Shown here: positions 780 through 16,515 of the stretch, one piece after another | Layout of the letters: every line of letters begins with the position of its first letter | Numbering within the stretch: position 1 is the stretch's first letter | Origin: an uncultured delta proteobacterium | Lineage (GTDB): Bacteria > Myxococcota > Myxococcia > SLRQ01 | DNA length: 64,000 bases | Direction: 5' to 3' | Assembly: GCA_963727485.1 (NCBI GenBank) | Contig: CAVSGM010000009.1 | Span: 96,001 to 160,000 of the forward strand | Program-made: the position numbers and the translations under genes | The notes under the pieces: generated by a model | What the model was told of the DNA's origin: nothing | The model's database searches: none | The model's input: the letters and a program-made list of their open reading frames with translations, nothing else

Positions 780-996
780 AGGTTGCTCCCGGTGAGTGGG
801 TAGATAGGTCGACACGTGGCTTGTAGCCAAGCTTCGGGTCACTCGGCAACGCAAGACGGCCCCGAAGCCCCGGAATTACATCCCTGTAAGGTGACCTGAT
901 TCAGGACAGGGTGAGCGGACATGCACACGCCACACCCCAACCCCCGGCAGCTTTTTGGGGGTGGTCCCTCCCCGGGGGATGCCTAGCATGGGTTCC

Positions 997-1350
997 ATGA
1001 ACCGACGCCAATTCCTCTTGCGGGCCGGGGGTCTGCTGGTGACCCTGCCCGCCGCCAGCGCCCTCGCCCAGGGCTCCGGCCGGGGCCAGAGCGCGCCCCG
1101 GCTCCTCGTCTTCACCTCCACCGTCACCGGGGACCACGACCACACCGTGAGCCTCGGCCGCTGGACCCTGGCGCACCCGCCTGCGATGGGGGTCTCCGGG
1201 AAGACCTCCGAGAACAGCCACCATCAGCACGAGGTCTTCCTCAGCGCCGACGACCTGGCCGGGCTCAGGGCCGGGAAGACGGTGATCCGCCAGACCACCA
1301 CGGTGGTCGGCCACCACCACGAGTTCCTGTTCCGCCTCCCGGCGGCCTAG
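997..1350 (+). CDS. Small Tat-exported His-rich protein, putative metal binder
   Basis: MNRRQFLL twin-arginine signal with an ALA-Q cleavage site; three His clusters (DHDH, SHHQH, GHHH). Confidence 0.65.
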   Translation: MNRRQFLLRAGGLLVTLPAASALAQGSGRGQSAPRLLVFTSTVTGDHDHTVSLGRWTLAHPPAMGVSGKTSENSHHQHEVFLSADDLAGLRAGKTVIRQTTTVVGHHHEFLFRLPAA

Positions 1351-1351
1351 A

Positions 1352-3574
1352 CTAGAGCGACGCGATCCAGTCGGCGAGGGCCGCCGCCCCGGCGGGCGGG
1401 GGCACCCCGGCGCCGAGGGCGTCGAGGGCCCCGGCCGCGGGCCCGGGATCGGCCCCGGCCTCGGCCCAGGCGAGGATCCGGCCCACGTCCGGGCGCGCGT
1501 CCGCCGGCGGCGGCGTCGCCACCCGGAGGGCGTCGGCACCGGCGACCAGCACCACGGCCCGGCGATCCACCACCCGGGCCCGGGTGGGACGCAGGGGCCC
1601 CGGGTGGTCCACCAGGGCCCGGGCCACGTCGGCGGCGAGGCGCAGGGCCAGGGGCCTCGGTGGCCTCGCCCCGAGGACCTCGGCGAGGGGGCGACCCTCG
1701 ACGAAGGCCCAGACCACCAGGTCCCCGTCGGCCTCGAGGTCGAGGAGCGCCTGGAGGTTGGGGTTCCCCGCCCGGGCCAGGGCGCCGAGGCGGGCCCGGT
1801 AGGCCTCGGGATCGGCGTCGGGGATCCGCTCGAGGACCACGTGCCGGGGAATCAGCGTGTCCCGGGCCAGGGCCACCCGGTCGCCGAGGGGGCGCACCAC
1901 CGACCACCGCCCCGAGGGCGCCGAGCGCGGCGCCCCGGGGCCCACCGGCACCGCGCCCTCCCCCATCGCCGACGCCGAGGCGACCCCGGTCGGCGAGGGG
2001 CCCGTGGCCGCCGCCGACGGCCCCGCGGGCAGGGGCAGGGCCTCGAGGGCGGCGGCGAAGGCGTCGGCGTCGGGGAAGCGGCCGGCCGGGTCCACCGCCA
2101 GGGCCCGGGCGAAGAAGGCGTCGACCTCGGCGCCGAGGCCCGGGACCCGGGCCGACGGAGGCGCCGCCCCCCGGGCCTGGGCGGCGATCACGTCGGGCCC
2201 GGCGAAGGGCAGCTCGCCCACCGCCGCCCGGTAGAGGGTGGCGGCGAGGCCGAAGAGATCCGACGGCCCCCCGAGGGCGTCCCCGGCGAGCTGCTCCGGG
2301 GACATGTAGGCCATGGTCCCGAGGAGGGCCCCGGTGACCGTCTGCTGGAACGAGAGGAGGTGGGCGGCCCCGAAGTCGCAGAGGTGGGCCCGGTCGGCGC
2401 CGTCGAAGAGGATGTTCTCGGGCTTCACGTCCCGGTGGAGGATCCCCCGGCGGTGGGCGGCGCCGAGGGCCCCGGCGATGGCCACCCCCAGGGCCCGGAC
2501 CTCGGCGAAGGGCAGGCGCCGGCCCCCGCGCACCCGCTGTGCCAGGGTGCCGCCGGGGAGGAAGGCCATGGCCAGGTAGCCCCGGGCCGGGTCGGCGTCG
2601 ACGATGCGCACCAGGCTGGGGTGGGACAGGGCCCGGGCGATCCGCGCCTCCCGGAAGAACCGGTCCACCGCGTCGCCGGTGGCCGAGCCCCGGGCGAGGA
2701 GCTTGAGGGCCACCCGGTCCCCGGTGGCGAGCTCGGTGGCGAGGTAGACCTGTCCGGCCCCGCCGGCGCCGAGGAGCCGCTCGAGGCGGTAGCGCCCGGC
2801 CACCGTGCGCCCGGCCTCGGTCTCCTCGCCGGTCTCCTGGAGGTCCTGGGCCAGGCGCGCCAGGAAGGTGCGGTGGTCCGCCGGGGGATCCGGGAGGGTC
2901 GGCGCCAGCTCGGCCCACACCGCCTCGCACGCCGCCGGGTAGCCGAGGGCGGCGAAGGCCTGGAGACGGAGGACCTGGGCCGCCTGGCCCCGGGCCCCGC
3001 CCCGCCGGGCCACCGCCTGGGCGAGGCGGCCGGCGTCCTCGGGGCGGCCGAGGCGCAGCTCGACCCGGGCCAGGGCCAACGCCGCCGCGTCCACCTCCGC
3101 CACCGGGGCCACGCCCCGGATCCCCGCGAGGTGGGCCTCGAGGGCCTCGGCGGCCTCCCGGGGCCGGCCGAGGAAGGTGAGCAGCCTCGCCGCCGCGCGG
3201 CGGTCCCCGGCCCGGGCGTAGGCGGCGGCGGCGCCGGCCAGATCCCCGGCGAGCTCCAGGAGGCCCGCGGCGGCGGCGTCCCGGCCCGCGGCGACGCAGT
3301 CGGCGGCGAGCCGGCGCCGCACCGCCCGTCCGTCGGGGGCGCCGTCGAGGGCGCGGCGCCGGTCCTCGGCGGCCGCCTCGAAGTCCCGGGCCAGGAGGTG
3401 GGCCCGGTGGGCCCGGAGCAGGTCGCCGCCGTGGCGGGCGCAGGTGGCCTCCCGCCCGGGCAGGGACAGGCGGGCATAGAGATCGGCGGCCTCGCCGTGG
3501 CGCCCCTCGGCGCAGAGGGCCTCGGCGGCCGGGAGGAGCTCGCCCCGGGCGACGAGCGCGCTCACGTCCGCCAC
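1352..3574 (-). CDS. Cytoplasmic Ser/Thr protein kinase with an N-terminal TPR-like region and a C-terminal degenerate kinase-like domain
   Basis: GTG start at 3574 after GGAGG. Motifs GAGGAG, VALK, HRDVKPEN, DFG, YMSPE. No TM segment seen. Confidence 0.85.
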   Translation of the reverse strand: MADVSALVARGELLPAAEALCAEGRHGEAADLYARLSLPGREATCARHGGDLLRAHRAHLLARDFEAAAEDRRRALDGAPDGRAVRRRLAADCVAAGRDAAAAGLLELAGDLAGAAAAYARAGDRRAAARLLTFLGRPREAAEALEAHLAGIRGVAPVAEVDAAALALARVELRLGRPEDAGRLAQAVARRGGARGQAAQVLRLQAFAALGYPAACEAVWAELAPTLPDPPADHRTFLARLAQDLQETGEETEAGRTVAGRYRLERLLGAGGAGQVYLATELATGDRVALKLLARGSATGDAVDRFFREARIARALSHPSLVRIVDADPARGYLAMAFLPGGTLAQRVRGGRRLPFAEVRALGVAIAGALGAAHRRGILHRDVKPENILFDGADRAHLCDFGAAHLLSFQQTVTGALLGTMAYMSPEQLAGDALGGPSDLFGLAATLYRAAVGELPFAGPDVIAAQARGAAPPSARVPGLGAEVDAFFARALAVDPAGRFPDADAFAAALEALPLPAGPSAAATGPSPTGVASASAMGEGAVPVGPGAPRSAPSGRWSVVRPLGDRVALARDTLIPRHVVLERIPDADPEAYRARLGALARAGNPNLQALLDLEADGDLVVWAFVEGRPLAEVLGARPPRPLALRLAADVARALVDHPGPLRPTRARVVDRRAVVLVAGADALRVATPPPADARPDVGRILAWAEAGADPGPAAGALDALGAGVPPPAGAAALADWIASL

Positions 3575-5421
3575 GTCGGCCCTCCGAGGTTCCGGGCCAC
3601 CCGCCGGGCCTCCAGGCGCGTGGCCACCCGCTCGAGGAAGCGGTGCACCGGCCCCGGGGGCTCGGCGGCGAGGTGGCGCTCGAGGACCGGCAGGCCCGGC
3701 TCCGAGACGTTGGCCGAGATGGCGACCCCCAGGTCGTCGGCGAGGGCCGGGTCCACCCCCTCCCGGAGGGTGTGGAGGAGGAAGTCGAGGGCGTCGCGGC
3801 TGGGGCCGGCGCGGTCCATGCCCACCACCCGGCCCAGGGCGAGGAGGGCCTCCCGGCGCACCGCCAGGTCGGCGTGGTCGCGGTAGAGCCGGACCAGGGG
3901 CCCGAAGGCCCCGGGGAAGGCGAGGTAGCGCAGCGCCCCCACCGCCGCCTCCCGGACCTCCGGCGACGGGTCCTCCACCGCCCGGTCCACCAGCTCCAGG
4001 CTCCCCCGGAAGGGCAGGAAGCGCAGGGACCTGGCCACCGCCGCCCGGAGCGCCGGGTCCGGGTCGTCGAAGGCCCGGGCGAGGGGTGGCAGGGCCAGCG
4101 GCGTCCCGAGGCGGCCGAGCTCGGCGATGCGGTCCGCCCGGCCATCGGGCCCCTCGTCGCCCCCCGCCGCCCGCCCCAGGCAGATGACCAGGCACCGCCG
4201 CCGGACCACGTCCCAGTGGCGCGGATCGCCCACGGCGTCGGGGACCGGGCTCAAGGGGTCGGCGGCGGCGTCGGCGGCGGTGGCGTCGGTGCGCCAGGTG
4301 TCCGGGTAGGCGGTGTCGTCGGTGAAGTACCCATTGAACGCCCAGACCGCCGGGCGGGCCGGGCCGTCGGGGGCCCGCTCGGCGAGGCGGGCGTAGCGTT
4401 CACGCCGACCCTCGCCCAGGGGCAGGGCCGCCAGCCGGGCGTAGGTGGCCTTCACGGCCCCGGCGTCCCCCCGGCGGTTGTGGCAGTCGAGGGCGGCGAG
4501 GTGGGCGTTCTCGGCGAGCTCGGTGGCCCCGAGGGCCAGGTGCCCCTCGGCGGTGGCGGTGAAGGCGTCGGCGGCCCGGGCGAGGAAGGCGTCGGCGTAG
4601 AGCATCCCGCCCTGCCGGCACCAGCCGCTGGCCTCCCGGAGGACCTCGGCCGCCGCCTGGGTCTCGCCCATCTCCAGGGAGGCCTCGGCCAGGTCGTGGA
4701 AGTACTGGAGGGCGAGGAACCGGTGCCCCCGGTCCCGCATGTAGCGGATGCAGTTGAGGAAGCCCTCGGCGAGGTTCTCGTGGGAGCCGGTCTTGCGGCC
4801 CACGTGGATGAGGGCGTGGTAGCAGGAGAGCGCCCGCTGCCCCTCCCCGGCGCGCTCGGCCCGGTCGGCCTCCTCCTCGAGGAGGACGATGGCCCGGGAC
4901 AGGCGCCGGGCGTCCACCCGGCCACCGGCGTCGTCGGCGCCGGAGAGGGCCTCGTTGAGGAGGGCCAGGGCGGTGAGGTAGGCGTCGCCGGCGGCCTCGA
5001 AGCCCTCGGCGGCCCGGTGCCACGCCTGCCCCGCCCTCCCCGCCTCCCCGGCGGCCTCCCAGGCGGCGGCGGCCCGGGCGTAGGCGCCCACCGCCTCGAA
5101 GGCCTCGGCGGCCGAGCCGTGGCGCCCCGCCCGGGCCAGACACCGGGCGGCGTCGGCGCCGCGCCCGGCCTGCACCCAGGCGGCGTGGGCCCCCACGGGA
5201 TCGAGGAGGTACTCCCGCGCCACGGCGGCCATCGCCGGGTGGCCCGAGGCCTCGGCGGCGTCGGCGAGGGCCAGGAGCCACCCGTCGTAGACCGGGTCGG
5301 CGTGGTGGAGGTCCGCGAGGAGGCTGCGCCAGGCGGCGATGGCGGCGTCGAGGTCGCCGGCCTCGAGGGCGGTGGTGGCGGTGGCCTCCAGGCGTCGGGT
5401 GTCCTCGAGGCTCGGGATCAC
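3562..5421 (-). CDS. TPR/SNAP-like helical repeat protein with C-terminal HEAT repeats
   Basis: GTG start overlaps the vWA stop (GTGA). Repeated A..A..E.AG helices; HEAT-like motifs DDPDPALRAAVARSL, EDPSPEVREAAVGAL, DLAVRREALLALG. Confidence 0.75.
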   Translation of the reverse strand: MIPSLEDTRRLEATATTALEAGDLDAAIAAWRSLLADLHHADPVYDGWLLALADAAEASGHPAMAAVAREYLLDPVGAHAAWVQAGRGADAARCLARAGRHGSAAEAFEAVGAYARAAAAWEAAGEAGRAGQAWHRAAEGFEAAGDAYLTALALLNEALSGADDAGGRVDARRLSRAIVLLEEEADRAERAGEGQRALSCYHALIHVGRKTGSHENLAEGFLNCIRYMRDRGHRFLALQYFHDLAEASLEMGETQAAAEVLREASGWCRQGGMLYADAFLARAADAFTATAEGHLALGATELAENAHLAALDCHNRRGDAGAVKATYARLAALPLGEGRRERYARLAERAPDGPARPAVWAFNGYFTDDTAYPDTWRTDATAADAAADPLSPVPDAVGDPRHWDVVRRRCLVICLGRAAGGDEGPDGRADRIAELGRLGTPLALPPLARAFDDPDPALRAAVARSLRFLPFRGSLELVDRAVEDPSPEVREAAVGALRYLAFPGAFGPLVRLYRDHADLAVRREALLALGRVVGMDRAGPSRDALDFLLHTLREGVDPALADDLGVAISANVSEPGLPVLERHLAAEPPGPVHRFLERVATRLEARRVARNLGGPTWRT

Positions 5422-6902
5422 CGCCCCGCCTCCCGGGCCCTCGACGCCGGAAAGCGGACCCCGTCCCCGCCGGCCAGGGCGCCGACGATGCGCAGGGCCG
5501 CCTGCCGGCGCTGGTGCGCCTCGGCGAGCTCCTCCCGGGTCACCGCCCAGTGGTGGTGGAGCTCCGGGAGGTAGTCGAGGGCCAGGGGCCCGTCGACCAG
5601 GACGTAGATCCCCGAGAGGGTCGCCACCGACGCCAGCTCGGCCACCAGGGACACCGGCAGGTGGCACTGGCCGTGGGTGATGAAGGTGATGCTCGCCTGG
5701 CGCCCGGCGTCCCGGCGCAGGCGCCCGACCTCGTGGAGGAGCGCCTGGAACACCCGCGCGTAGCTGCGCCCGCGCTCCGGGCGGTGGGCCAGGAGGTAGG
5801 GGAGCCGGTGGTCGTGGCCGGTGATGCGCATGGCCTCGTGGAGGCGCGAGTCGAAGAACCGCAGCTGCACCTCCTCGCCGGTGGCGGTGAGCCGGCGGAT
5901 GAGGCCGAGCGCCAGGCCCCGGGCGAAGATGGCCCGGGCCCCGCGCATGGAGGCGCTGCCGTCCACCAGCACCAGGTGGACCCTCCGCTCGTGGTCGGGC
6001 TTGGCCTCCCGGCCGTAGTAGAGGAGCTGGCTCTCGGCGTACTTGTGGGCGAAGACCTCGTCGGGATAGGCGAGCTCGGTGGGCACCAGGTGGTCCGGGT
6101 TCCCCCGCCGGCTCACCCCGGCGACCCCGTCCACCGAGAGCTGCTGGATCCCGCGGCGCCGCCGGGTCTCGTCGAGCTGGGGCAGCAGCTCCAGGGAGAA
6201 GTGGATGACCTCGGCGGCCGCCGGGTCGTCGAGGAGGCGGTAGAGGTCCAGGGCCCCGAGGCCCCCGGCGAGGGACACGTCCCCGGCGAAGATCCCGGCG
6301 AGGCGCAGGGTGTCCACGTCGATGCGCTCGGCGCTGGTGACCACCTGGAAGTGCCGGTCCATGGCGGTGCGCAGGAAGCGGACCCAGGCCTCGGTCCCGG
6401 CCTCGGCGAAGCGGCCCGGGAGATCGTCGAGGTCGTAGGCCCGGGCGTCCACCGGGAGGTCCTGGCCCAGGTGCCCCCGGGCGGCCTGGGGGCCGAGGGC
6501 GTCGAGGACCGGCTCGAGGATCCGGGCCACCAGGGCGGCGACGGCCTCGGGGCCGAGGTCGAGGAACGGCGCCCGGTGGCAGAGCTCGGACCCGGCGAGC
6601 TCCTCGAGGAGCGCCTTCCAGCCCATCACCAGGGGCAGGAGCGGGTGTCCCGGCCCCACCCCGGCGGCCCGGAGGACCTCGGGGTCGGGGCCCAGGCGCG
6701 GGGGCCGCCCGTCGGCGAGGAGGCGGCCGAGGTCGTGGACGAAGACCAGGGGCACGTGGTGGCCGATGCGGTGGACCAGGTTGTGCCACAGGGCGGCCCG
6801 GGCCACCGCGTCGGCGCCGCCCCGCGCCGGGAGCACCGAGAGGACCAGGCCCACCGCGGCCCGCTCCGCCGGGATCGCCGGGGTCGCCGGGGTCGACGCC
6901 AC
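5418..6902 (-). CDS. vWA (MIDAS) domain protein, ViaA-like partner of the MoxR ATPase
   Basis: MIDAS motif LVLVDGSASM (DxSxS), RFFDS and FITHG. Upstream RRGNPDHLVPTELAY...YAESQLLYY segment is typical of ViaA-type proteins. Confidence 0.8.
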   Translation of the reverse strand: MASTPATPAIPAERAAVGLVLSVLPARGGADAVARAALWHNLVHRIGHHVPLVFVHDLGRLLADGRPPRLGPDPEVLRAAGVGPGHPLLPLVMGWKALLEELAGSELCHRAPFLDLGPEAVAALVARILEPVLDALGPQAARGHLGQDLPVDARAYDLDDLPGRFAEAGTEAWVRFLRTAMDRHFQVVTSAERIDVDTLRLAGIFAGDVSLAGGLGALDLYRLLDDPAAAEVIHFSLELLPQLDETRRRRGIQQLSVDGVAGVSRRGNPDHLVPTELAYPDEVFAHKYAESQLLYYGREAKPDHERRVHLVLVDGSASMRGARAIFARGLALGLIRRLTATGEEVQLRFFDSRLHEAMRITGHDHRLPYLLAHRPERGRSYARVFQALLHEVGRLRRDAGRQASITFITHGQCHLPVSLVAELASVATLSGIYVLVDGPLALDYLPELHHHWAVTREELAEAHQRRQAALRIVGALAGGDGVRFPASRAREAGR

Positions 6903-6905
6903 CGC

Positions 6906-8090
<1,185 letters not shown>

Positions 8091-8097
8091 CGGTTCC

Positions 8098-9237
8098 TCA
8101 CTCTAGCGCGGGCCGGCCTTCGGGGTAGCCCATGAGGTGGAGGCCCGCCCCGAGGGTCTCGGTGACGACCGACTCCTCGCTCGCCGTGTCCACGGCCCCC
8201 GCCGCGGCGAGCCACCCGTCGAGGCGCGCCGCCAGGGGGACCCCGAGCTCGTCGGCGGTGGGGAGGCCGAAGACGTCGCCGCCCCGGTGGAGCACCTTGT
8301 AGAGGGCCAGGTACCACCGCCCCTCGCCGTGGCCCGGCTCGGCGACGGTCTCGGGCTCGCCCCGGGTCAGGGCCGCGTGCTGGCCCAGGAGGTGGAGGTG
8401 GTAGAGGGCCTGGAGGAGCCGGACGACCTCGGCCCGGGGGGCGCCGGCGCGGACCCGGACCAGGAGCGCCCGGGTGAGGACGCCGCCGAGGTGGCTCGGG
8501 TCCGGGGCCTGGAGCCAGCGGTAGAGGATGCCCCGGGCGAGGTCCGGGTCGGCGAGCCACCGGGCGGTGGCGCCGAAGGTGAACCTTGGCGCCGGGCGGC
8601 CGGCGGTGAGCAGATCGGTGACGGGGCTGGCGAGGAGGAGCCGGGCCAGGAGGCCCCGCCGGTCGGGGACGCCGAAGGTCTGGACCAGGGGCACCCCGAA
8701 CCGGTGGACCGCCACCTGGCGCAGGCGCGGGAGGCGGGTCATGCGCTTCGGAGGGGTCCGGCCGGGGTAGTGCCGGCGCCCGAGCCAGTAGATGACCTCG
8801 GCGTCCATGCGCTCGGCGTCGAAGAGGGGGCCGATGAGGGTGTGGGCGGCCAGGGCGTCGTCGACGGTGTCCGGCAGGCGCAGGCGGGTGGCGAGCTCCA
8901 GGGTGTAGCCCAGCGCCGCCTCCAGGCCCCCGGGGCGGGCGTCGGCGCGACCGAGCGCCGGGTGACCGAGGGCCACCAGGTTGTGGAGGACCGCCACCCG
9001 GAGGACGTCGGTGGGGCCGAGGGGGAGCGGCGTCGCGAGGGGGACCAGCTCGCCGGCGAGGCGACCCCGGGCCTGGGCGAGGCCGTCGGGGGCCCGGTTG
9101 CGGAGGATGAGGCGCCCGAGGGCCTCGACCTCGTCGGCACCGAGGGGCAGGCCCACCCGCACCCGGCCCCCGGCGAGCCACGCCGGGAGGAAGCCGTCGA
9201 GGACCGCCTGGGCGGCGCCGGTGGCCTCCCGGATCAC
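8098..9237 (-). CDS. Hypothetical protein in the MoxR-vWA operon
   Basis: High-GC3 coding frame; GTGA overlap with the upstream gene; 7 nt gap to the MoxR start. Confidence 0.7.
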   Translation of the reverse strand: MIREATGAAQAVLDGFLPAWLAGGRVRVGLPLGADEVEALGRLILRNRAPDGLAQARGRLAGELVPLATPLPLGPTDVLRVAVLHNLVALGHPALGRADARPGGLEAALGYTLELATRLRLPDTVDDALAAHTLIGPLFDAERMDAEVIYWLGRRHYPGRTPPKRMTRLPRLRQVAVHRFGVPLVQTFGVPDRRGLLARLLLASPVTDLLTAGRPAPRFTFGATARWLADPDLARGILYRWLQAPDPSHLGGVLTRALLVRVRAGAPRAEVVRLLQALYHLHLLGQHAALTRGEPETVAEPGHGEGRWYLALYKVLHRGGDVFGLPTADELGVPLAARLDGWLAAAGAVDTASEESVVTETLGAGLHLMGYPEGRPALE

Positions 9238-10700
9238 CCGCCGCCTCCGGTGGGGAACCGGCGTCCCCAGAGGGGAAAGGGCCCGGCGTCGTCGAAGACC
9301 ACCTTGGGCGCCCCGGCCACCTCGCCGGTCTCGGCGACCGCCGCCGGGGGCACCTCCACCTGGGCCACCAGCCGGCGCGAGAGGGGCATGAGGGCCGACT
9401 CGGCGACGGTGAAGGGCGCCGCGTCGCCGCCGGGGAGGACCGCCAGCTCGCCCTGCCCCACCCCCAGGGCCTCGGCGACCAGCGCCGGGGGCAGGCGGGG
9501 GACCACGACCTGTCCCAGGGGCACCAGGACCTGGGCTCCCACCCGGCGCAGCGGCAGGCCCAGGGGCAGCTCCTCCACGGCGCCCTCGCCCACCACCAGG
9601 AGGCCCCGGTCGAGGCTCACCGCCCGGTAGCGCTCGAGGGTCGCCGGCGGGAGGGCGTAGACCAGGTGGCGGAAGGCCGAGAGCTGCCGCGGGGGGATGA
9701 GGAGGGCCTCCGGGGGCCCGAGGCCCCGGTGGTCCGGGGCGAGGCGCAGGGGCACGTCCACCGGCTCACCGGGGTCGGCGGCGGTGGCCCCCGCGGCCTC
9801 GGCGCCCAGGTCGGGCCGCACGCCCCGGCGCAGGGGGAGCCAGCCGAGCTCGCCGTGGATCACCCGGGCCCCCGGGCGGTTGCCCAGGAAGAGCCAGAGG
9901 GCGTCGTCCCCGAGGGCGTCGGCGCAGGCGGCGAGGTCGAAGGGGTGGCGGAAGCCCTGCTCCACCGCGGCCCGGGTGCCCTCGGGGACCAGGAGCCGCA
10001 CTCCCGGGGTGGCGCCCAGCCGATGGCGCACCCGGGGCGGGAGATCCCGGGCCCGGTAGAGGAAGAGCTCGCCGTCGTCGACCTCGGCCCGGACGACCTC
10101 GGCGTCGACGCCGCAGCGCCAGAGGTAGGCCTCGAGGTCGGCCCGGAGCCCCGGGGGCGCGAGGACCAGGAGGGTCTCGGGGTCGAGGCCCCGGCGCCGG
10201 ACGGGCTCGGGGGCGAGGCGGAGGAGGAGGCTGCGCAGGGGCAGGCCCTCGACCACGGCGTAGGGACCCTCGGCGACGCGGCCGTAGAGGACGACGTCGG
10301 CCTCGCCCTCGACCAGGCGGTCCACGTCGTAGCCCAGGGGGCTCTTCCGGTCCCGGTAGCGCACCAGGTGCCGGGCCTCCCCGGTGAACAGCTCCCCGCC
10401 CCCGAGGCCGGCGACCCGGGCCAGGCGGTCGAGGCGCGGGGTGTCCCCGGCGTCGAAGCGGAGGAGGAACTCCACGGTGCCGAGGGCCGAGCGGACCCGG
10501 TCGACGACCAGGGCCGCGTAGAGCTCGGGCTGGGCGAGCTCGCCGGTGAGGGTCGAGAGGGCGGCGACCACCCGGTCCAGGGACGGCAGGAGCATCGCCG
10601 CCACCCGGCCCGTGGCCACCCCCCGGGCGTCCGTCTTCAGCCCGGGCGCCACGAACCGCGTCTGGTGCTGTGCGACGGGGACCAGCAAGACGACGGTCAT
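9234..10700 (-). CDS. Hypothetical protein, first gene of the MoxR-vWA operon; possibly a ternary-system accessory domain
   Basis: Coding-like frame. Motifs VEQGFRHP and VPLRLAP...LVYALP...ELPLG...LVPLG recall MoxR-vWA ternary-system accessory domains (from memory, unverified). Confidence 0.7.
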   Translation of the reverse strand: MTVVLLVPVAQHQTRFVAPGLKTDARGVATGRVAAMLLPSLDRVVAALSTLTGELAQPELYAALVVDRVRSALGTVEFLLRFDAGDTPRLDRLARVAGLGGGELFTGEARHLVRYRDRKSPLGYDVDRLVEGEADVVLYGRVAEGPYAVVEGLPLRSLLLRLAPEPVRRRGLDPETLLVLAPPGLRADLEAYLWRCGVDAEVVRAEVDDGELFLYRARDLPPRVRHRLGATPGVRLLVPEGTRAAVEQGFRHPFDLAACADALGDDALWLFLGNRPGARVIHGELGWLPLRRGVRPDLGAEAAGATAADPGEPVDVPLRLAPDHRGLGPPEALLIPPRQLSAFRHLVYALPPATLERYRAVSLDRGLLVVGEGAVEELPLGLPLRRVGAQVLVPLGQVVVPRLPPALVAEALGVGQGELAVLPGGDAAPFTVAESALMPLSRRLVAQVEVPPAAVAETGEVAGAPKVVFDDAGPFPLWGRRFPTGGGG

Positions 10701-10747
10701 TGTAACCTGCCTTTGCCCCGGGGCGAGGCTCTGCCAAACTTGGGGGC

Positions 10748-11908
10748 GTGTCCCTCTGGGCCCGGTTCCGCTCCGCCGACTACCGCGAGGCCCTCGCCGC
10801 CGAGGCGGCGGGGGACCTCGAGCGGGCCGCCACCGCCTTCTCCCGGGCCGGGCGCCCCGGGGAGGTGATCCGCCTCCGCCGGCACCTCGCCACCGGCGCC
10901 GCCGAGCCCGCCGAGCGCGTCCGCCACCTCCGCGCCGCCCTCGCCGTCGCCGAGGGCGCCTACGTCGAGGACGCGCTCCGGACGTCCCTGCGCCAGTCGT
11001 TGGCCCGGGCCCTCGTCGCCACCCGGGACAGCGGCTCCCTGGTCCAGGCGGTGGCCCTCTACCGCGCCGAGGGCGATCACCACGGCGCCGCCGAGGCCCT
11101 CCTGGCCCTGGGGCAGGAGCCCGAGGCCCGGGCGGAGCTCGCCGCCGGGCACCTCTTCGAGCGCCTCGAGCGCCTGGACCGGGCCACCGCCCGCCGCGAG
11201 GCGTCCGAGGCCGCCCGGGACGCCGCCGCCTCCGCCGCCGAGGCCCGGGCCGACGCCGGGGACCGGGCCGGGGCCCTCCACGCCCTCGAGGCCCTCGACC
11301 CGGCGGCGGTCACCGGCGCCGCCCGGGCCCTCCGGGCGCGCCTGGTCGCCGCCCGCCCCGAGGGGCGCCTGGCTCTCGCCGCCGCCGGGACCGGGGCCGC
11401 GGTCACCATCGTGGGGACCCTCCCGGTGGTCCTCGGCCGGGGCCCGGACAGCGCCCTGCCCTTGGCCGACGCCGGGATCTCCCGGCACCACGCCCGCCTC
11501 GACGGCGCCGGGGGCGGCTTCCGCCTCGCGGACCTCGAGAGCCGCAACGGCACCTGGATCGACGGGCTCCCGGTGGGCGCGGGCTTCGAGCTCCCGGAGG
11601 CCGGACGCTTCACCCTCGGGGAGCGGTGCCGGGTGGTCTTCCGGCGCCTGGGCGAGGGGGCCCTGCTGCTGGAGGTGGAGCGGGGGCTCGCCGCCGGGGC
11701 CCGGGCGGTGGTCCTCGGGGGGCCGGCGGAGCTCGCCGGGGTGCTCCCGGGGCTGGCGCCGGTGCGCCTCGCCCTCGAGGGGGGCTGGTTCCGCCTCGCC
11801 GGCGACGGGCTGCGCCTCCAGGGGCGCCCCGTCGCCGGGCCCGTCGACCTCCTGGTGGGGGACCGGGTCGAGGTCGCGGGCTGCGACCTGGAGGTCCGGC
11901 GGCGATGA
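10748..11908 (+). CDS. TPR-like + FHA domain protein
   Basis: FHA signature VVLGRG...GISRHHARL...LADLESRNGTWIDG; helical N-terminus; ATGA overlap with the next gene. Confidence 0.82.
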   Translation: MSLWARFRSADYREALAAEAAGDLERAATAFSRAGRPGEVIRLRRHLATGAAEPAERVRHLRAALAVAEGAYVEDALRTSLRQSLARALVATRDSGSLVQAVALYRAEGDHHGAAEALLALGQEPEARAELAAGHLFERLERLDRATARREASEAARDAAASAAEARADAGDRAGALHALEALDPAAVTGAARALRARLVAARPEGRLALAAAGTGAAVTIVGTLPVVLGRGPDSALPLADAGISRHHARLDGAGGGFRLADLESRNGTWIDGLPVGAGFELPEAGRFTLGERCRVVFRRLGEGALLLEVERGLAAGARAVVLGGPAELAGVLPGLAPVRLALEGGWFRLAGDGLRLQGRPVAGPVDLLVGDRVEVAGCDLEVRRR

Positions 11909-13299
11909 CCGGGGCCACCGGGGCCGACCGGGGCTGGATCCGGGCGCTGTGGGCGTGGCTCACCGAGGCGGCCGATCCCCCCGCCGGCCCGGGCCCCGCC
12001 GGCGGGGCCCTCACGGCCCCCCGGGATCCGGCCGCGCCGCCGCTCCCCGCCCGCCCCGTGGGCCCCGGCCCCGGGCCGAGCCTCCCCCCGGGGCCGGTGG
12101 GGCGCCTCGCCACCGCCGCCGACACCGGGGACGCCGCCGGGGCCCGCCGGGCCCTCGACGCCGCCGTCGACGCCGGCCTCGCCCCCGAGGCCCGGCGCTG
12201 CCTCGCGGCCCGGGACGCCGCCGACGCCCCGGTGTGGCTCCGCCTCCTCGCCGCCGACGCCGCCCTCGCCGACGACCCCGACGCCGGCCGCCGGGTCCTC
12301 GAGGCCCTCGCCGACGCCGGGACCCCGGACCTCGCCGCCGAGGCCCGGCTGCGCCTCGGCGATCTCCTCAGGGACGCCGGGGACCTCGCCGGGGCAAGGA
12401 TGCACTACGAGCGGGCCCTCGCCGTGGACCTGGACCTCCCCCGGGCCCGGGCCCTGGCCGACGCCCTGGGCACCGGCGCCGACGCCGAGGCCGCGGGCGG
12501 CCGCCCCACCCTGGTCCTGCCCCGGGCGCGGCTGGGCCCGGCGGCGGATCGCTACGTCCTCCTCCGGGAGCTCGGCCGTGGCGGCGCCGGCACGGTGTAT
12601 CTCGCCGAGGACGCGCGCCTGGGCCGGCGGGTCGCCGTGAAGGTGCTCCACCCGCGGCCCGGCGAGGCCCCTCCGGCGCGGCTCCTCGCCGAGGTCCAGG
12701 CGGCGGTGGCGGTCGCCCACCCGGGGATCGTCCGGATCTTCGACGTGGATCCCGAGCGGGGGGTGGTGGTCATGGAGCACCTCGCGGGGGGCTCCCTCCG
12801 GGACCGCCTGGTGCCCGGCGAGCCGGTGCCCCCGGCGGCGGCGGCGGGCCTGGCCCGGGGCCTCGCCGAGGCCCTGGCGGTCCTCCACCGCCGGGGCGTG
12901 ATCCATGGGGACCTGAAGGCGGGCAACGTCCTGTTCCGGGGCGGGGCCGGCCTCTCGGAGCCGGTGATCGCGGACTTCGGCCTCGCCCGGGAGGCCGGCG
13001 GCGGCCGGCGGCCCGCGGGGACCCTCGCCGCCATGGCCCCCGAGGTCCGCGCCGGCGCCGCCCCCACCCCCGCCGCCGACGTCTGGGCCCTCGGCGTCCT
13101 CCTCCACGAGGTCCTGGCCGGGCGCCCCCCGATCGCCCCCGGGGACATCCTCCAGGGGCGCCTGACCCCGTCGGCCCTCCCGGAGGCGGTCCCCGAGCCC
13201 CTCCGGCGCCTGGTCGCCGCCCTCCTCGCCGCCGATCCCGAGGCCCGCCCGGCGGACGCCGACGCGGTCCTCGCCCGCCTGGAGGCCCTCGCCGGTTGA
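11905..13299 (+). CDS. TPR + Ser/Thr protein kinase (non-RD, cytoplasmic)
   Basis: ATG 11905. TPR-like ARLRLGDLLRDAGDLAGARMHYERALAVD; GRGGAG, VAVK, HGDLKAGN, DFG, MAPE, DVWALG. Confidence 0.85.
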   Translation: MTGATGADRGWIRALWAWLTEAADPPAGPGPAGGALTAPRDPAAPPLPARPVGPGPGPSLPPGPVGRLATAADTGDAAGARRALDAAVDAGLAPEARRCLAARDAADAPVWLRLLAADAALADDPDAGRRVLEALADAGTPDLAAEARLRLGDLLRDAGDLAGARMHYERALAVDLDLPRARALADALGTGADAEAAGGRPTLVLPRARLGPAADRYVLLRELGRGGAGTVYLAEDARLGRRVAVKVLHPRPGEAPPARLLAEVQAAVAVAHPGIVRIFDVDPERGVVVMEHLAGGSLRDRLVPGEPVPPAAAAGLARGLAEALAVLHRRGVIHGDLKAGNVLFRGGAGLSEPVIADFGLAREAGGGRRPAGTLAAMAPEVRAGAAPTPAADVWALGVLLHEVLAGRPPIAPGDILQGRLTPSALPEAVPEPLRRLVAALLAADPEARPADADAVLARLEALAG

Positions 13300-13344: not shown

Positions 13345-14169
13345 ATGCCCCCCCGCCCCCACCCCGACCCCGACAGCGCTGTCGCACCGCGCCGCGTCCT
13401 CACCACGGTCCTCGCCGTGCTGGTGGGGGCGCTGGCGGCGCCGGTGCCGGCCCGGGGCGCCCCGGCGGCGCCCCCCCACGCCTTCGGGCCCGGGGAGGTC
13501 CTGGTCTACGACGTCCACTACGGCCCGGTCCATACGGGGAAGGCGCGGATCGCCGTGGGCGCCGACCGGCCCATGGGCGGGAAGCAGGTGTGGCCCATCG
13601 TGGTCCAGGCCCGGACCAACGACGTGTTCAGCCACGTGTTCCCGGTGCGGGACCAGTTCGTGACCCTGTGGCAGCCCAAGGCCGCCGGGAGCCTGGGCTT
13701 CGACTTCCACGCCGACGAGAACGGGCGCCGGCGCTTCACCCGCATGCGCCTCTACCCGGCGAAGGGCCGGGCGGTGGTCGAGCGGCAGGTGCCGGGCAAG
13801 GCGCCCCACCGGGCCCACTACCAGACCGGGCGGGCCGATCACGACGTGGCCTCGGCGGTGTTCTGGCTGCGCACCCGGCCCCTCCACGTGGGCGACCGGG
13901 ACCAGGTGCGGGTGTTCACCGGGTACCGGACCTGGGACCTGGTGGCCCACGTCGAGGGCAAGGAGACGGTGAAGACCGCCGCGGGCACCTGGCACACGGT
14001 GCGCGTCCGCCTCGAGACCCACTTCCACGGCAGGCTTGCGGCGCGGCACGACATCGTGCTGTGGATGACCGATGACCGAGCGCACGTACCGGTGCGGGCC
14101 GAGGCGGAGCTGGTCCTCGGCTCGGTGCAGGCCGACCTCTCGACCTACCTCCCCGGGCTCACCGAGTAG
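13345..14169 (+). CDS. Exported DUF3108-like protein
   Basis: Signal peptide; FGPGEVLVYDVHYG, GKETVKTAAGTW, LWMTDDRAHVPVR motifs. Confidence 0.75.
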   Translation: MPPRPHPDPDSAVAPRRVLTTVLAVLVGALAAPVPARGAPAAPPHAFGPGEVLVYDVHYGPVHTGKARIAVGADRPMGGKQVWPIVVQARTNDVFSHVFPVRDQFVTLWQPKAAGSLGFDFHADENGRRRFTRMRLYPAKGRAVVERQVPGKAPHRAHYQTGRADHDVASAVFWLRTRPLHVGDRDQVRVFTGYRTWDLVAHVEGKETVKTAAGTWHTVRVRLETHFHGRLAARHDIVLWMTDDRAHVPVRAEAELVLGSVQADLSTYLPGLTE

Positions 14170-15508
14170 GGCCCTGGGCACGGCCCTGGTGGCCGCGGTG
14201 CTCCTCGCCGGGTGCCACGGCGGCCAGGCGGCCACCGGCGCCACGTCCAAGGGCGGGAGCGCCGCGCACCCCCACAAGGCGGCGAGCGACCTGGCGACCG
14301 GGGGCGGCCCCTCCGCCGACGGCGGCACCGCCGACGCCGGCACCCCCGACGCGGGCGTCCTCCCGGGCGACCGGGCGACGCGGCGCCGGGCCGCCCGAAA
14401 CCTGTTGCGCCAGGGACACCTGAAGGCCGCCGAGGCCACCCTGGAGGCGCTCTGGCGCACCGGGAGCGACGAGGCCTCGCGCACCGACGGCCTCCTCGCC
14501 GCCGCGGCCCACGCCCGCCGCGGCGACGACGACGGGGCCCTGGCCCTCCTCGCCGAGGCCGAGCACCGGGGGCTCCCCGACGGGCACCTCGAGGACCTCG
14601 CCGCCGCCATCGCCAGCGACGTCCCCAACCCCGGGGCCCTCGCCCACCGCCTCGCCGGCGACCCGGCGGGCATCCGCACCCATGTCCGCGCCGCCCTCGA
14701 GGGGGCCCTCTACCAGCGGGCGGGGAAGCCGCGCCTCGCCATCCCCTACTGGGAGCAGGCGGCGCACCTGGCCCCGGACCAGGTGGTCTACTGGCGCCAG
14801 CTCATGCGCCTCTACGCGGTCACCGGGCACCCCCACCGCCTGGAGACGGCCCTGCGCAAGGTCGTCACCCTCGAGCCCCGGTACGTCCCGGCGCGGGTCG
14901 ACCTGGTGCGCATGCTCACCCGCCAGGGCCACGACCCCGAGGCCCGGGCGGTGGCGCTGCCTCCGAAGGGCGCCTACTCGGCCCTCGACCGGAAGGTGAC
15001 CGAGGCCGAGGTCCTCCAGCGGGCCGGCCGCGATCGCGACGCGGTGACCGCCTACCGCCGGATCCTCGCCGGTCACCCCGACGACTGCCGGGCCCGCCTC
15101 GGGCTCGGGCGCGCGCGCCTCGACGCCGGCGAGGTGAAGGCCGGGGCCCGAGCCCTCTACGACCTGGTGGCCCACCGGGTCGGGGGGCGCCCCTGCGACG
15201 TCGCCGAGGCGGCCCGCACCCTCCTCTCGGATCCCCGCACCAAGGCCGGGATGGGCAAGCGCCTCGCCCACCTCGCCGCCCACGGCGGGGGCGCCGAATC
15301 CGGCGACCCTCCGGGCCATGGTGAAGGCGTCCCGGCCGACCGGCCGGTGAATAGTCGGCCGGGCGCTGCGTACCAACGGGCGTGCCGCGCCTGGCCCGAG
15401 CCGGCAGGGGATGGTCCCCTGGGGCGGGCGCGGCACAACTCCTCGTTTGCACCGGGCGCTCGCCGTGGGCGAGCATGGGTGCCCTGGACGGTTCCCCGAT
15501 GCGCCTGA
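14072..15508 (+). CDS. TPR-repeat lipoprotein; start uncertain, true end probably 15350 after a G-run frameshift
   Basis: Lipobox VLLAGC and several TPR-like helices (LAPDQVVYWRQL, HPDDCRARLGLG). The tail after ~15290 looks non-coding in this frame. Confidence 0.65.
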   Translation: MTERTYRCGPRRSWSSARCRPTSRPTSPGSPSRALGTALVAAVLLAGCHGGQAATGATSKGGSAAHPHKAASDLATGGGPSADGGTADAGTPDAGVLPGDRATRRRAARNLLRQGHLKAAEATLEALWRTGSDEASRTDGLLAAAAHARRGDDDGALALLAEAEHRGLPDGHLEDLAAAIASDVPNPGALAHRLAGDPAGIRTHVRAALEGALYQRAGKPRLAIPYWEQAAHLAPDQVVYWRQLMRLYAVTGHPHRLETALRKVVTLEPRYVPARVDLVRMLTRQGHDPEARAVALPPKGAYSALDRKVTEAEVLQRAGRDRDAVTAYRRILAGHPDDCRARLGLGRARLDAGEVKAGARALYDLVAHRVGGRPCDVAEAARTLLSDPRTKAGMGKRLAHLAAHGGGAESGDPPGHGEGVPADRPVNSRPGAAYQRACRAWPEPAGDGPLGRARHNSSFAPGARRGRAWVPWTVPRCA

Positions 15509-16515
15509 CCCTCGTCGTCGCCCTCGTGGCCCTGTGCGCCAGCGGCTCCCGCGCGGCCCGCGCCGCTGCGGGGGACGGCGGCGTGGCGACGCAGGCCGCG
15601 GCAGGGCCCGCCGATGGGGGCGCGAGGGCGCCGGACACGGCGGCGCCGGCCCGCACCTCCCACCCGGCCCAGGCCTCCCACCCGGCCCAGGCCTCCCATC
15701 CGGCCCCCGCCTCCCAGGTGTCGCACGCCTCCCATCCGGCCCCCGCGAGCCCGGGTCCCCGGGGCGTCGCCCCCTGCGGCGGGCCCCCGCCGGCGGCGGG
15801 CCCGGCGCCCTTCGCCCCCGGCGAGCTCCTCCACTACGACCTCGACGTCCTCGGGGTCCGCGCCGGCACCCTGGACCTCGACGTCGCCCGGGACCCGGCC
15901 GGGGGCTACGACTTCGGCGCCCTCGCCCGGTCCAACACCTTCTTCGAGAACATCCGCAAGGTGCGCGGCCAGGCCACCTCCTACGCCTCGGCACGGACCC
16001 TCGAGCCGCGGCGCTACCGCGAGGACGCCACCGAGGACGGGGTGAAGAAGTGGGCCGAGGTCCACTTCAATCCCAAGGACCACCAGGTGGACATCGCCTA
16101 CGCCATCGGCAGCCACCGGCGCCGGGTGCGCTACCCCCTGCGCTACGGCCCCTTCGACGTGCTCTCGGTGGTCTACTACGTGCGCACCCTGCCGATGAAG
16201 GTCGGGGAGCACCTCTGCGTGGACCTCTACGGCAACCGGAAGGTCTGGCGGCTCCGGGGCCACGTCGACGGCGAGGAGTGGATCGACACCCCGGCGGGGA
16301 AGTTCAAGACCTGGCGGCTGGTGGGCGAGGCCTGGCGCCTGGACATGCCCAAGTACCACCGGCCCATCCACCTCTGGATCAGCCAGGACGCCCGGAGGCT
16401 CCCGGTGGCGGTGGTGGGCGAGATCGACCTGGGGCCGGTCCGCGCCCAGCTCTCGCGCATCGGCCCGGCGACCGCCGAGTCCCGCCCGCCCGACTACGGC
16501 GGCGGAACCTGGTAG
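15499..16515 (+). CDS. Second exported DUF3108-like protein with an N-terminal repeat linker
   Basis: Signal peptide MRLTLVVALVAL; FAPGELLHYD, GEEWIDTPAGKF, LWISQDARRLPV. Confidence 0.75.
   Translation: MRLTLVVALVALCASGSRAARAAAGDGGVATQAAAGPADGGARAPDTAAPARTSHPAQASHPAQASHPAPASQVSHASHPAPASPGPRGVAPCGGPPPAAGPAPFAPGELLHYDLDVLGVRAGTLDLDVARDPAGGYDFGALARSNTFFENIRKVRGQATSYASARTLEPRRYREDATEDGVKKWAEVHFNPKDHQVDIAYAIGSHRRRVRYPLRYGPFDVLSVVYYVRTLPMKVGEHLCVDLYGNRKVWRLRGHVDGEEWIDTPAGKFKTWRLVGEAWRLDMPKYHRPIHLWISQDARRLPVAVVGEIDLGPVRAQLSRIGPATAESRPPDYGGGTW
15656..15745 (+). repeat. Five imperfect 18-bp in-frame tandem repeats (SHPAQA-like)
   Basis: cctcccacccggcccagg x2, cctcccatccggcccccg, cctcccaggtgtcgcacg, cctcccatccggcccccg. 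Confidence 0.85.

Follow-up and report, generated by a model that had tools for sequence, protein, structure and literature searches.

An eight-part MoxR-vWA system with two kinases and an FHA protein is inherited as one unit across Myxococcota

Little is known of the clients and triggers of most MoxR-vWA chaperones, and much of what is said of the ternary conflict systems built on them is prediction. As described by Kaur et al. (2020, PMC7159879), the vWA protein grips a peptide through its metal ion-dependent adhesion site (MIDAS) and MoxR remodels the bound protein. The same account presents the simple-type FtsH ternary system, represented in Pfam by fvmX3, fvmX5, fvmX6, fvmX7, ivWA and ivWA-helical_N, and the beta-propeller ternary system, represented by bpMoxR and bpX0-6. 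A further relative is the Esr pathway of Actinomycetes, which according to Wang et al. (2026, PMC13622651) employs MoxR, vWA, a kinase and FHA proteins against epibionts and is lineage-wide; in that account FHA domains bind phosphothreonine, and kinase-FHA signalling is shown to work together with a MoxR-vWA pair. Here we analyze a window of 64,000 nucleotides (contig C9, positions 96001-160000) from the genome of an uncultured member of the Myxococcota (G000; 5.55 Mb, 93% complete), in which positions 1352..13299 encode a MoxR ATPase, a vWA protein, two kinases, an FHA protein and three further proteins. Across Myxococcota, these eight genes are passed on as a single unit, and we are highly confident that they form one functional unit. 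Their products likely constitute a cytoplasmic switch, so far undescribed, that would use phosphorylation to control the ATP-driven remodelling of a protein complex by MoxR and vWA.

Eight open reading frames were confirmed in this interval, all with a GC content at third codon positions (GC3) of 0.97-0.99 in the coding frame. Six occupy the minus strand: gene A (9234-10700; 488 aa), an fvmX7 homolog and likely partner of B; gene B (8098-9237; 379 aa), whose mostly helical product with a small beta-sheet belongs to no known family; MoxR (6906-8090; 394 aa), an AAA+ ATPase of the MoxR/RavA clade; the vWA protein (5418-6902; 494 aa), an N-terminal helical domain plus a vWA domain with no fused effector; a TPR/HEAT protein (3562-5421; 619 aa), with TPR/SNAP-like and HEAT repeats and likely a scaffold; and the kinase gene that we call KIN1 (1352-3574; 740 aa, or 737 aa from an alternative GTG start at 3565), with a TPR region, a Ser/Thr kinase domain and a degenerate kinase domain. 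The plus strand carries TPR-FHA (10748-11908; 386 aa), with an FHA domain at residues 227-291 and a beta-rich C-terminal domain, and a second kinase gene, KIN2 (11905-13299; 464 aa), with a TPR region, a linker and a kinase domain. Overlaps of 4 nt occur at the A/B, vWA/TPR-HEAT and TPR-FHA/KIN2 junctions, gaps of 7 and 3 nt separate B from MoxR and MoxR from vWA, and KIN1 overlaps the TPR/HEAT gene by 13 nt, or by 4 nt from the GTG start. A and TPR-FHA diverge from start codons separated by a 47-nt spacer (10701-10747); the spacer contains no sigma-70 promoter consensus, a terminator consensus was also not found, and comparable spacers of 25-43 nt occur in loci L011, L048 and L054.

An earlier note on this DNA had described six packed minus-strand genes diverging from the TPR-FHA/KIN2 pair, with 47 nt between the starts, and the coordinates and GC3 values bear it out. 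It had also judged the module to be apparently cytosolic. The maximum hydropathy in 19-residue segments over the eight proteins is 1.77, so no membrane segment is evident and all eight parts appear cytoplasmic. The two genes that the note had listed as unknown have parted ways, with A now recognized as an fvmX7 homolog and B remaining without a known family. One full-length copy of each gene is present in the genome. The GC content of the locus (0.789) lies above that of the genome (0.732), at the 99.8th percentile among 12-kb stretches, in line with the Ala/Gly/Arg/Pro-rich proteins encoded.

The closest described relative is the FtsH ternary system, with whose core the locus shares three homologous parts, A, MoxR and vWA, as judged by profile comparison. 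MoxR has the P-loop GPPGTAKS, which fits the GXXXTAKS pattern of MoxR in the FtsH ternary system as published, and a Walker B motif at D121-E122; GPPGTAKS and LDE are kept in 68 of 68 homologs. [quoted passage not shown] Neither the vWA protein nor B matches any Pfam family, and the vWA assignment was made because of the DxSxS motif and this profile homology; among 50 homologs, 11 match ivWA and 3 match ivWA-helical_N (E<=0.01). The MIDAS residues D314, S316 and S318 are invariant in all 50, and DxSxS is found in 99 of 103 homologs in a wider set. No solved relative of the vWA protein was found by profile search. A gene resembling fvmX7 lies upstream of MoxR in both systems, and the FtsH ternary system, as described, also occurs in myxobacteria. 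Residues 152-442 of A are homologous to fvmX7 (hhalign probability 97.9, E 5.8e-13); its only Pfam match is a weak one to bpX2, and of 53 homologs 28 match bpX2 and 6 match fvmX7 (E<=0.01).

The two systems nevertheless differ in several respects. The third component of the published FtsH ternary system, a protein with two FtsH-type AAA+ domains, is absent from the locus and its conserved neighbours, and fvmX3, fvmX5, fvmX6 and the radical S-adenosylmethionine (SAM) gene also have no counterpart here. Across the window genome (93% complete), profiles for fvmX5, fvmX6, long fvmX7 and ivWA matched nothing, and the FtsH profile matched only elsewhere, over no more than positions 275-704. Among 59 recurrent-neighbour proteins scanned, none corresponds to the NEFF1 or radical SAM effectors or to the ubiquitin-like (Ubl) conjugation set of that system, the sole radical SAM cluster being RlmN. 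Gene A corresponds to the N-terminal X7 domain alone (488 aa, versus 1080 aa for the fvmX7 protein of the FtsH ternary system), the MIDAS is intact, unlike that of the FtsH system, and B, TPR/HEAT, TPR-FHA and the two kinases are additions. Because it lacks the double-AAA FtsH, fvmX5 and fvmX6, the locus falls outside the definition of the FtsH family and represents a sister system rather than a member.

Gene A (predicted local distance difference test score, pLDDT, 87.7) is modelled as two ferredoxin-like alpha/beta domains with generic fold matches (best Z 5.8). The model of B (pLDDT 91.6) found nothing at Z>=8 in a fold search (best Z 5.8), and no Pfam family is common to 35 members; 649 representatives of B exist at 50% clustering. 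Searches of the ESM Atlas found no match that reached 0.9. A profile comparison gave no match between B and the C-terminal part that A lacks relative to the 1080-aa fvmX7 protein, and the idea that B supplies this part is rejected for now. The TPR/HEAT protein of the window matches Pfam HEAT_2, as do 47 of 47 members of its family, with TPR_16 in 19 and SNAP in 7.

The resemblance to the published beta-propeller ternary system consists of a bpMoxR match (PF20030; 263.7 bits, cut-off 27), the weak bpX2 matches of the A homologs and the lack of a conventional effector. The bpMoxR model is not specific, however, since it also gives about 203 bits on MoxR proteins of FtsH and other systems. The propeller that follows vWA in that system is missing here: vWA homologs (464-535 aa) end shortly after the vWA core, and no propeller family was found in 50 members. 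Its third component combines transmembrane, TPR and propeller segments, whereas the TPR protein here ends in HEAT repeats and has a hydropathy maximum of 1.27. The beta-propeller system is, moreover, reported from different phyla. Thus the claim that this is a relative of the FtsH and beta-propeller ternary systems without their third components held up in the profile matches and the searches of the window genome.

Esr provides a precedent that works alike, combining MoxR, vWA, a Ser/Thr kinase and FHA with Thr phosphorylation in the published account. To these, Esr as described adds an Ig/beta-propeller sensor that is secreted, a transglutaminase and a phosphatase, FHA fusions that vary and a connection to Esx secretion; its FHA protein is phosphorylated on Thr in response to a threat. 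The sensor, transglutaminase and phosphatase are not among the eight genes or their recurrent neighbours, in a search covering linked copies. As presented by its authors, Esr is confined to Actinomycetes, whereas the parts here look cytoplasmic, have a fixed architecture and include a kinase/pseudokinase pair. In the VMAP systems as described, kinases and FHA domains are fused and mostly inactive effectors, unlike here. PADLOC, with its 2023 model library, found no match for six of the genes, and the kinases matched only kinase-domain models such as PD-T4-6 and mad6. Literature searches, mostly of open-access coverage, yielded no description of the eight-part system. We conclude that it is a new variant among MoxR-vWA systems; within the reach of these searches, the full set of eight parts has not been described before. 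The novelty proposed by the earlier note therefore holds for the full set and has to be narrowed for the theme of MoxR, vWA, kinase and FHA, a combination that experiments have already demonstrated in Esr, an unrelated pathway (PMC13622651).

A comparison with RavA-ViaA of Escherichia coli, likewise an AAA+ ATPase plus a vWA adaptor, raises the alternative that the locus encodes a maintenance chaperone of that kind, serving one metabolic or membrane complex and tuned by the kinases and the FHA protein. Among solved structures, RavA is the nearest to this MoxR ATPase (3NBX, E 2.7e-49), the inheritance is vertical and single-copy, and the modelled ACT/PII-like ferredoxin folds of A (Z<6) are of a kind that can bind metabolites. 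However, the RavA match covers only the AAA+ core (residues 33-309), MoxR has 394 rather than about 500 residues, its score with the RavA equivalog model NF010054 is 191.5 bits, below the cut-off of 681, and six extra genes are present. Five of the eight parts are signalling or scaffold proteins, and no metabolic gene among the recurrent neighbours is conserved beside the system across clades. This explanation consequently appears improbable.

The strongest evidence that the genes belong together comes from their co-occurrence in 151 genomes. The sample covers the class of G401, the genome of the Sandaracinaceae locus L041, a neighbouring class of Myxococcota that we take to be Polyangia. Profiles of seven parts (MoxR left out), mostly built from carriers, were used with cut-offs set to exclude generic domain matches, and the kinases were searched by their N-termini. 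The numbers of genomes matched were 88 for vWA, 89 for TPR/HEAT, 87 for A, 86 for B and 82 for TPR-FHA, with three more just below the cut-off for the last. KIN1 matched 91 and KIN2 87, or 90 and 85 after setting aside partial matches in G407 (KIN1) and in G408 and G500 (KIN2). Seven parts were found in 73 of the 90 carriers, six in 13, five in 3 and three in 1, and the other 61 genomes had none. A KIN1 profile from only three sequences of the window's family matched 58 genomes, all of them carriers, and ten KIN1 matches that were inspected are full TPR-kinase orthologs. The seven searched parts are thus all-or-none across the class despite their dispersal, and contig gaps would not be expected to remove at least three unlinked loci together in 61 genomes. 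On an RpoB tree, the near-sisters G412 (no parts) and G552 (all seven), separated by a distance of 0.028, account for one of the changes in presence. The kinase and FHA genes accordingly belong with MoxR-vWA, as had been proposed, and the failure to co-occur that was named beforehand as speaking against the idea was not seen. The gene fvmX5 is found in 16 of the 151 genomes, of which 15 also carry the eight-gene system.

These parts are inherited together even though they are often far apart. Neighbourhoods were compared in 80 loci kept from 531 relatives in a GTDB scan, many of them cut by contig ends; a contig search with the single vWA sequence returned nothing, and the relatives were found using a vWA alignment. 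The order A-B-MoxR-(insert)-vWA-TPR/HEAT recurs in Polyangia, Kofleriaceae, Haliangiales, Sandaracinaceae and Myxococcales records, the FHA-KIN2 pair faces A head-to-head in 20 of the 80 loci, and all eight genes have the identical order in G003, of the window's family. Pairwise distances were taken from the 151-genome set, in which fragmented assemblies lower the linkage counts. Within 3 kb of each other are A and B in 81 of 84 genomes with both, FHA and KIN2 in 74 of 78, and vWA and TPR/HEAT in 63 of 88, and these three pairs are the linkage sub-modules. None of 88 genomes has KIN1 within 15 kb of vWA. In other classes of the phylum the scattering is complete, the eight genes of G110 occupying seven separate places. 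Since KIN1 is co-distributed yet never near vWA in the 151-genome set, the copy in the window is a compact version of a pathway that is usually scattered. The idea of a self-contained locus is hence right for the window's family, where the genes are compact, and wrong elsewhere, where they are split over several loci. KIN1 as a family-specific add-on was rejected, as orthologs were found in the class-wide search.

Such scattering could mean that the kinase/FHA genes and a MoxR-vWA core of five genes form separate modules, and that lineage history and genome reduction have given them a common distribution. In many genomes neither FHA-KIN2 nor KIN1 is linked to the core, 60 of 80 vWA loci (many of them cut by contig ends) lack the FHA-KIN2 pair beside it, and non-carriers have smaller genomes. 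Against this, 39 of 79 genomes have A and FHA head-to-head, the window and two more genomes of its family have KIN1 coupled to the core operon, and the parts were lost jointly about 15 times, including in genomes of 8-10 Mb; 17 of the 61 non-carriers measure 6 Mb or more. The separation was already weakened by these observations, and we regard it as highly improbable.

A strong vWA match was obtained in 20 of 401 genomes of a sample of the window's phylum; within the window's own class, strong matches occur only in its family (the window genome and two of four others). The weak vWA matches in family f2 (82 of 178) proved, where inspected, to be the FtsH ternary system or its ivWA gene. The gene trees track that of RpoB, with Spearman coefficients of 0.64-0.90 and 0-4 conflicting well-supported splits per gene, and the parts evolve 1.9-6.1 times faster than RpoB. 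In a three-gene tree, the window's family is sister to the Polyangia sequences (support 0.917), with other classes outside. A recent foreign origin of the locus is not supported, given a GC content above the genome mean and a family that branches outside Polyangia.

The same distribution bears on the purpose of the system. It is present as a single copy in nearly all carriers, it is inherited broadly vertically, and searches with its vWA protein found no match among 50,697 phages, 72,556 plasmids and viral contigs. A stable regulatory switch therefore fits better than a mobile anti-phage defence, and on balance we lean towards a host-encoded switch for stress or lifestyle. The anti-phage role suggested by the earlier note gained no direct support: PADLOC returned kinase models only, no variable effector is present, and descent and the phage and plasmid searches speak as above. 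A broader version of this idea is a conserved pathway sensing phages, epibionts or rival cells, in which the same phospho-switch would have defence or cell death as its output. In its favour, A, MoxR and vWA are homologous to the core of a proposed conflict system, the published Esr pathway puts similar parts to such use and is also lineage-wide, repeated loss of the whole system is typical of a conditionally useful defence, and the parts evolve quickly. Nevertheless, no effector domain or hypervariable part is seen, the single copies are dispersed rather than held in cassettes, no surface sensor of the Esr kind is present, and 44 of 47 neighbour proteins have no PADLOC match, the other three matching generic methylase, PLD and sigma-54 activator folds. 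We consider a threat-sensing role rather unlikely.

How the switch might operate is suggested by the kinases and the FHA protein. The Pfam Pkinase domain covers residues 262-461 of KIN1 and 217-450 of KIN2. KIN1 is an RD-type kinase (H380-R381-D382) with T412-x-T414 in its activation loop, and alignment reveals a second, degenerate kinase domain at its C-terminus. Of 32 orthologs sampled, 30 have HRD and 29 have TQT or a comparable T-x-T loop. The catalytic Asp has been lost in G549, G457, G058, G110, G137 and G070, each of which keeps a T-x-T or T-x-S activation loop; judged from these alignments, the Asp appears dispensable in several lineages while the loop stays. KIN2 has an intact HxD catalytic loop in 58 of 58 orthologs (30 HGD, 23 HRD, 5 other); that of the window has HGD and a short, variable activation loop. 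Its residues T202, K246, D336 and D357 are invariant in 19 of 19, and T202 belongs to a T-[LIV] linker motif found in 48 of 58 orthologs. The FHA domain of TPR-FHA scores 49.4 bits with Pfam FHA, and its G230-R231, S245 and H248 are invariant in 19 of 19. FHA docking on the phosphorylated TQT loop of a kinase is known from PknB and GarA, and by analogy the T-x-T loop of KIN1 is a likely FHA docking site. The beta-rich C-terminal region of TPR-FHA (about 90 aa; window positions 11650-11908) has an FHA-like LLxGD motif at its end and is perhaps a degenerate second FHA domain.

In the mechanism that we propose, an intracellular cue would be read through the TPR regions and activate KIN2, which, together with KIN1 where that is active, would phosphorylate the T-x-T loop of KIN1 and the linker residue T202 of KIN2. 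TPR-FHA would then dock on these phosphothreonines, connecting the kinases with both the A-B pair and the TPR/HEAT scaffold. Within this assembly, the vWA MIDAS would grip an acidic residue of the client, and the MoxR hexamer would pull the client apart or release it, resetting or firing the switch. KIN2 would be the constant writer, and KIN1 would serve as substrate and scaffold, its T-x-T loop being more important than its catalytic activity. A more ambitious formulation, which we offer tentatively, is that of an ancient phylum-wide signalling machine: the kinase/pseudokinase pair and the FHA protein would build a TPR/HEAT signalosome that MoxR-vWA dismantles, serving a social, predatory or immune decision. 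It would have been missed because it was lost from the model myxobacteria.

Several points weigh against the reading of the locus as one regulatory switch. The four steps are inferred from motifs and linkage, the locus contains no phosphatase, sensor or output domain, and its close relatives in print are all proposed or shown to be conflict systems. MoxR co-occurrence covers three genomes rather than the class, with full-length MoxR in carriers G110 and G484 and a partial generic match in non-carrier G412. Presence changes 15 times by parsimony on an RpoB tree (FastTree) of 110 of the 151 genomes, 55 carriers and 55 non-carriers, plus that of the window, against a mean of 37 for shuffled labels; it is therefore phylogenetically clustered and the genomes are not independent, and the tree is of a single gene with some weak nodes. 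Carriers are larger (median 7.25 versus 5.0 Mb), so part of the pattern could reflect shared loss in genome reduction. Finally, the KIN2 linker Thr is absent in 9 of 58 orthologs, Gly stands in place of the alphaC Glu in 8 of 19 KIN2 sequences, which form one clade, and the FHA Asn is replaced in many TPR-FHA homologs.

The loci with Gly for the alphaC Glu are L026, L028, L035, L036, L052, L056, L063 and L067; in the seven of these that were aligned, the FHA Asn is Ala, which points to a possible joint weakening of writer and reader in that clade. In the clade of G549 and G457 (loci L165, L167, L173, L177, L229 and L230), where KIN1 is catalytically dead, KIN2 has HRD and the linker RGL[SA]LL[DE]G instead of T-[LIV].

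Other genes near the system vary by clade. Inserts between MoxR and vWA were rejected as variable effectors, being clade-specific methyltransferase, receiver, DUF1993 or nuclease-family genes. A co-oriented DNA-methyltransferase-like gene occupies this position in 23 of the 80 loci, all of one clade (e.g. L077:8618-9841), and a co-oriented lone receiver-domain gene does so in 10 loci of Kofleriaceae/Haliangiales (e.g. L075:9545-9943). Inserts of 6-10 kb also separate MoxR from ivWA in FtsH ternary systems of family f2 (L146, L156, L157 and L158), so the MoxR-vWA junction tolerates insertions in both sister systems. After KIN2, loci L167, L172, L173, L175, L177 and L181 have a lipoprotein-like gene of about 205 aa and then a kinase-ATPase-TPR protein of about 1200 aa, which are possibly a clade-specific input or output, and L021 has this kinase directly after KIN2. 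The second kinase after KIN2 in one clade was rejected as KIN1 because it is a different protein of kinase-STAND-TPR type. Unlinked KIN1 orthologs are head-to-head with other genes in L203, L205, L207, L209, L210 and L211; from their N-terminal motifs, these neighbours presumably resemble methylthioadenosine phosphorylase and PfkB sugar kinase. In the window, a gene for a small His-rich protein (955-1350, plus strand) with a twin-arginine-like leader (RRQFL) and no Pfam match converges on KIN1, a single base separating the two stops, and has a paralog on contig C3 (37% identity). On the other side, a TPR protein with a lipobox-like motif lies between two DUF3108 genes (13345-16515, plus strand); G003 has the same arrangement beside the system, and Polyangia loci lack it.

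Of the genomes sampled from this large class of soil and aquatic bacteria, about 60% have the fixed eight-part version, and the window supplies the whole set as a single 12-kb cassette that could be expressed in a myxobacterium without it. Residues are named for such work in the MIDAS, Walker B, the catalytic Asp, three candidate phospho-Thr positions and the FHA pocket. For the biology of these bacteria, the finding would give a defined pathway to one FHA protein and to two of the kinases that myxobacteria have by the dozen.

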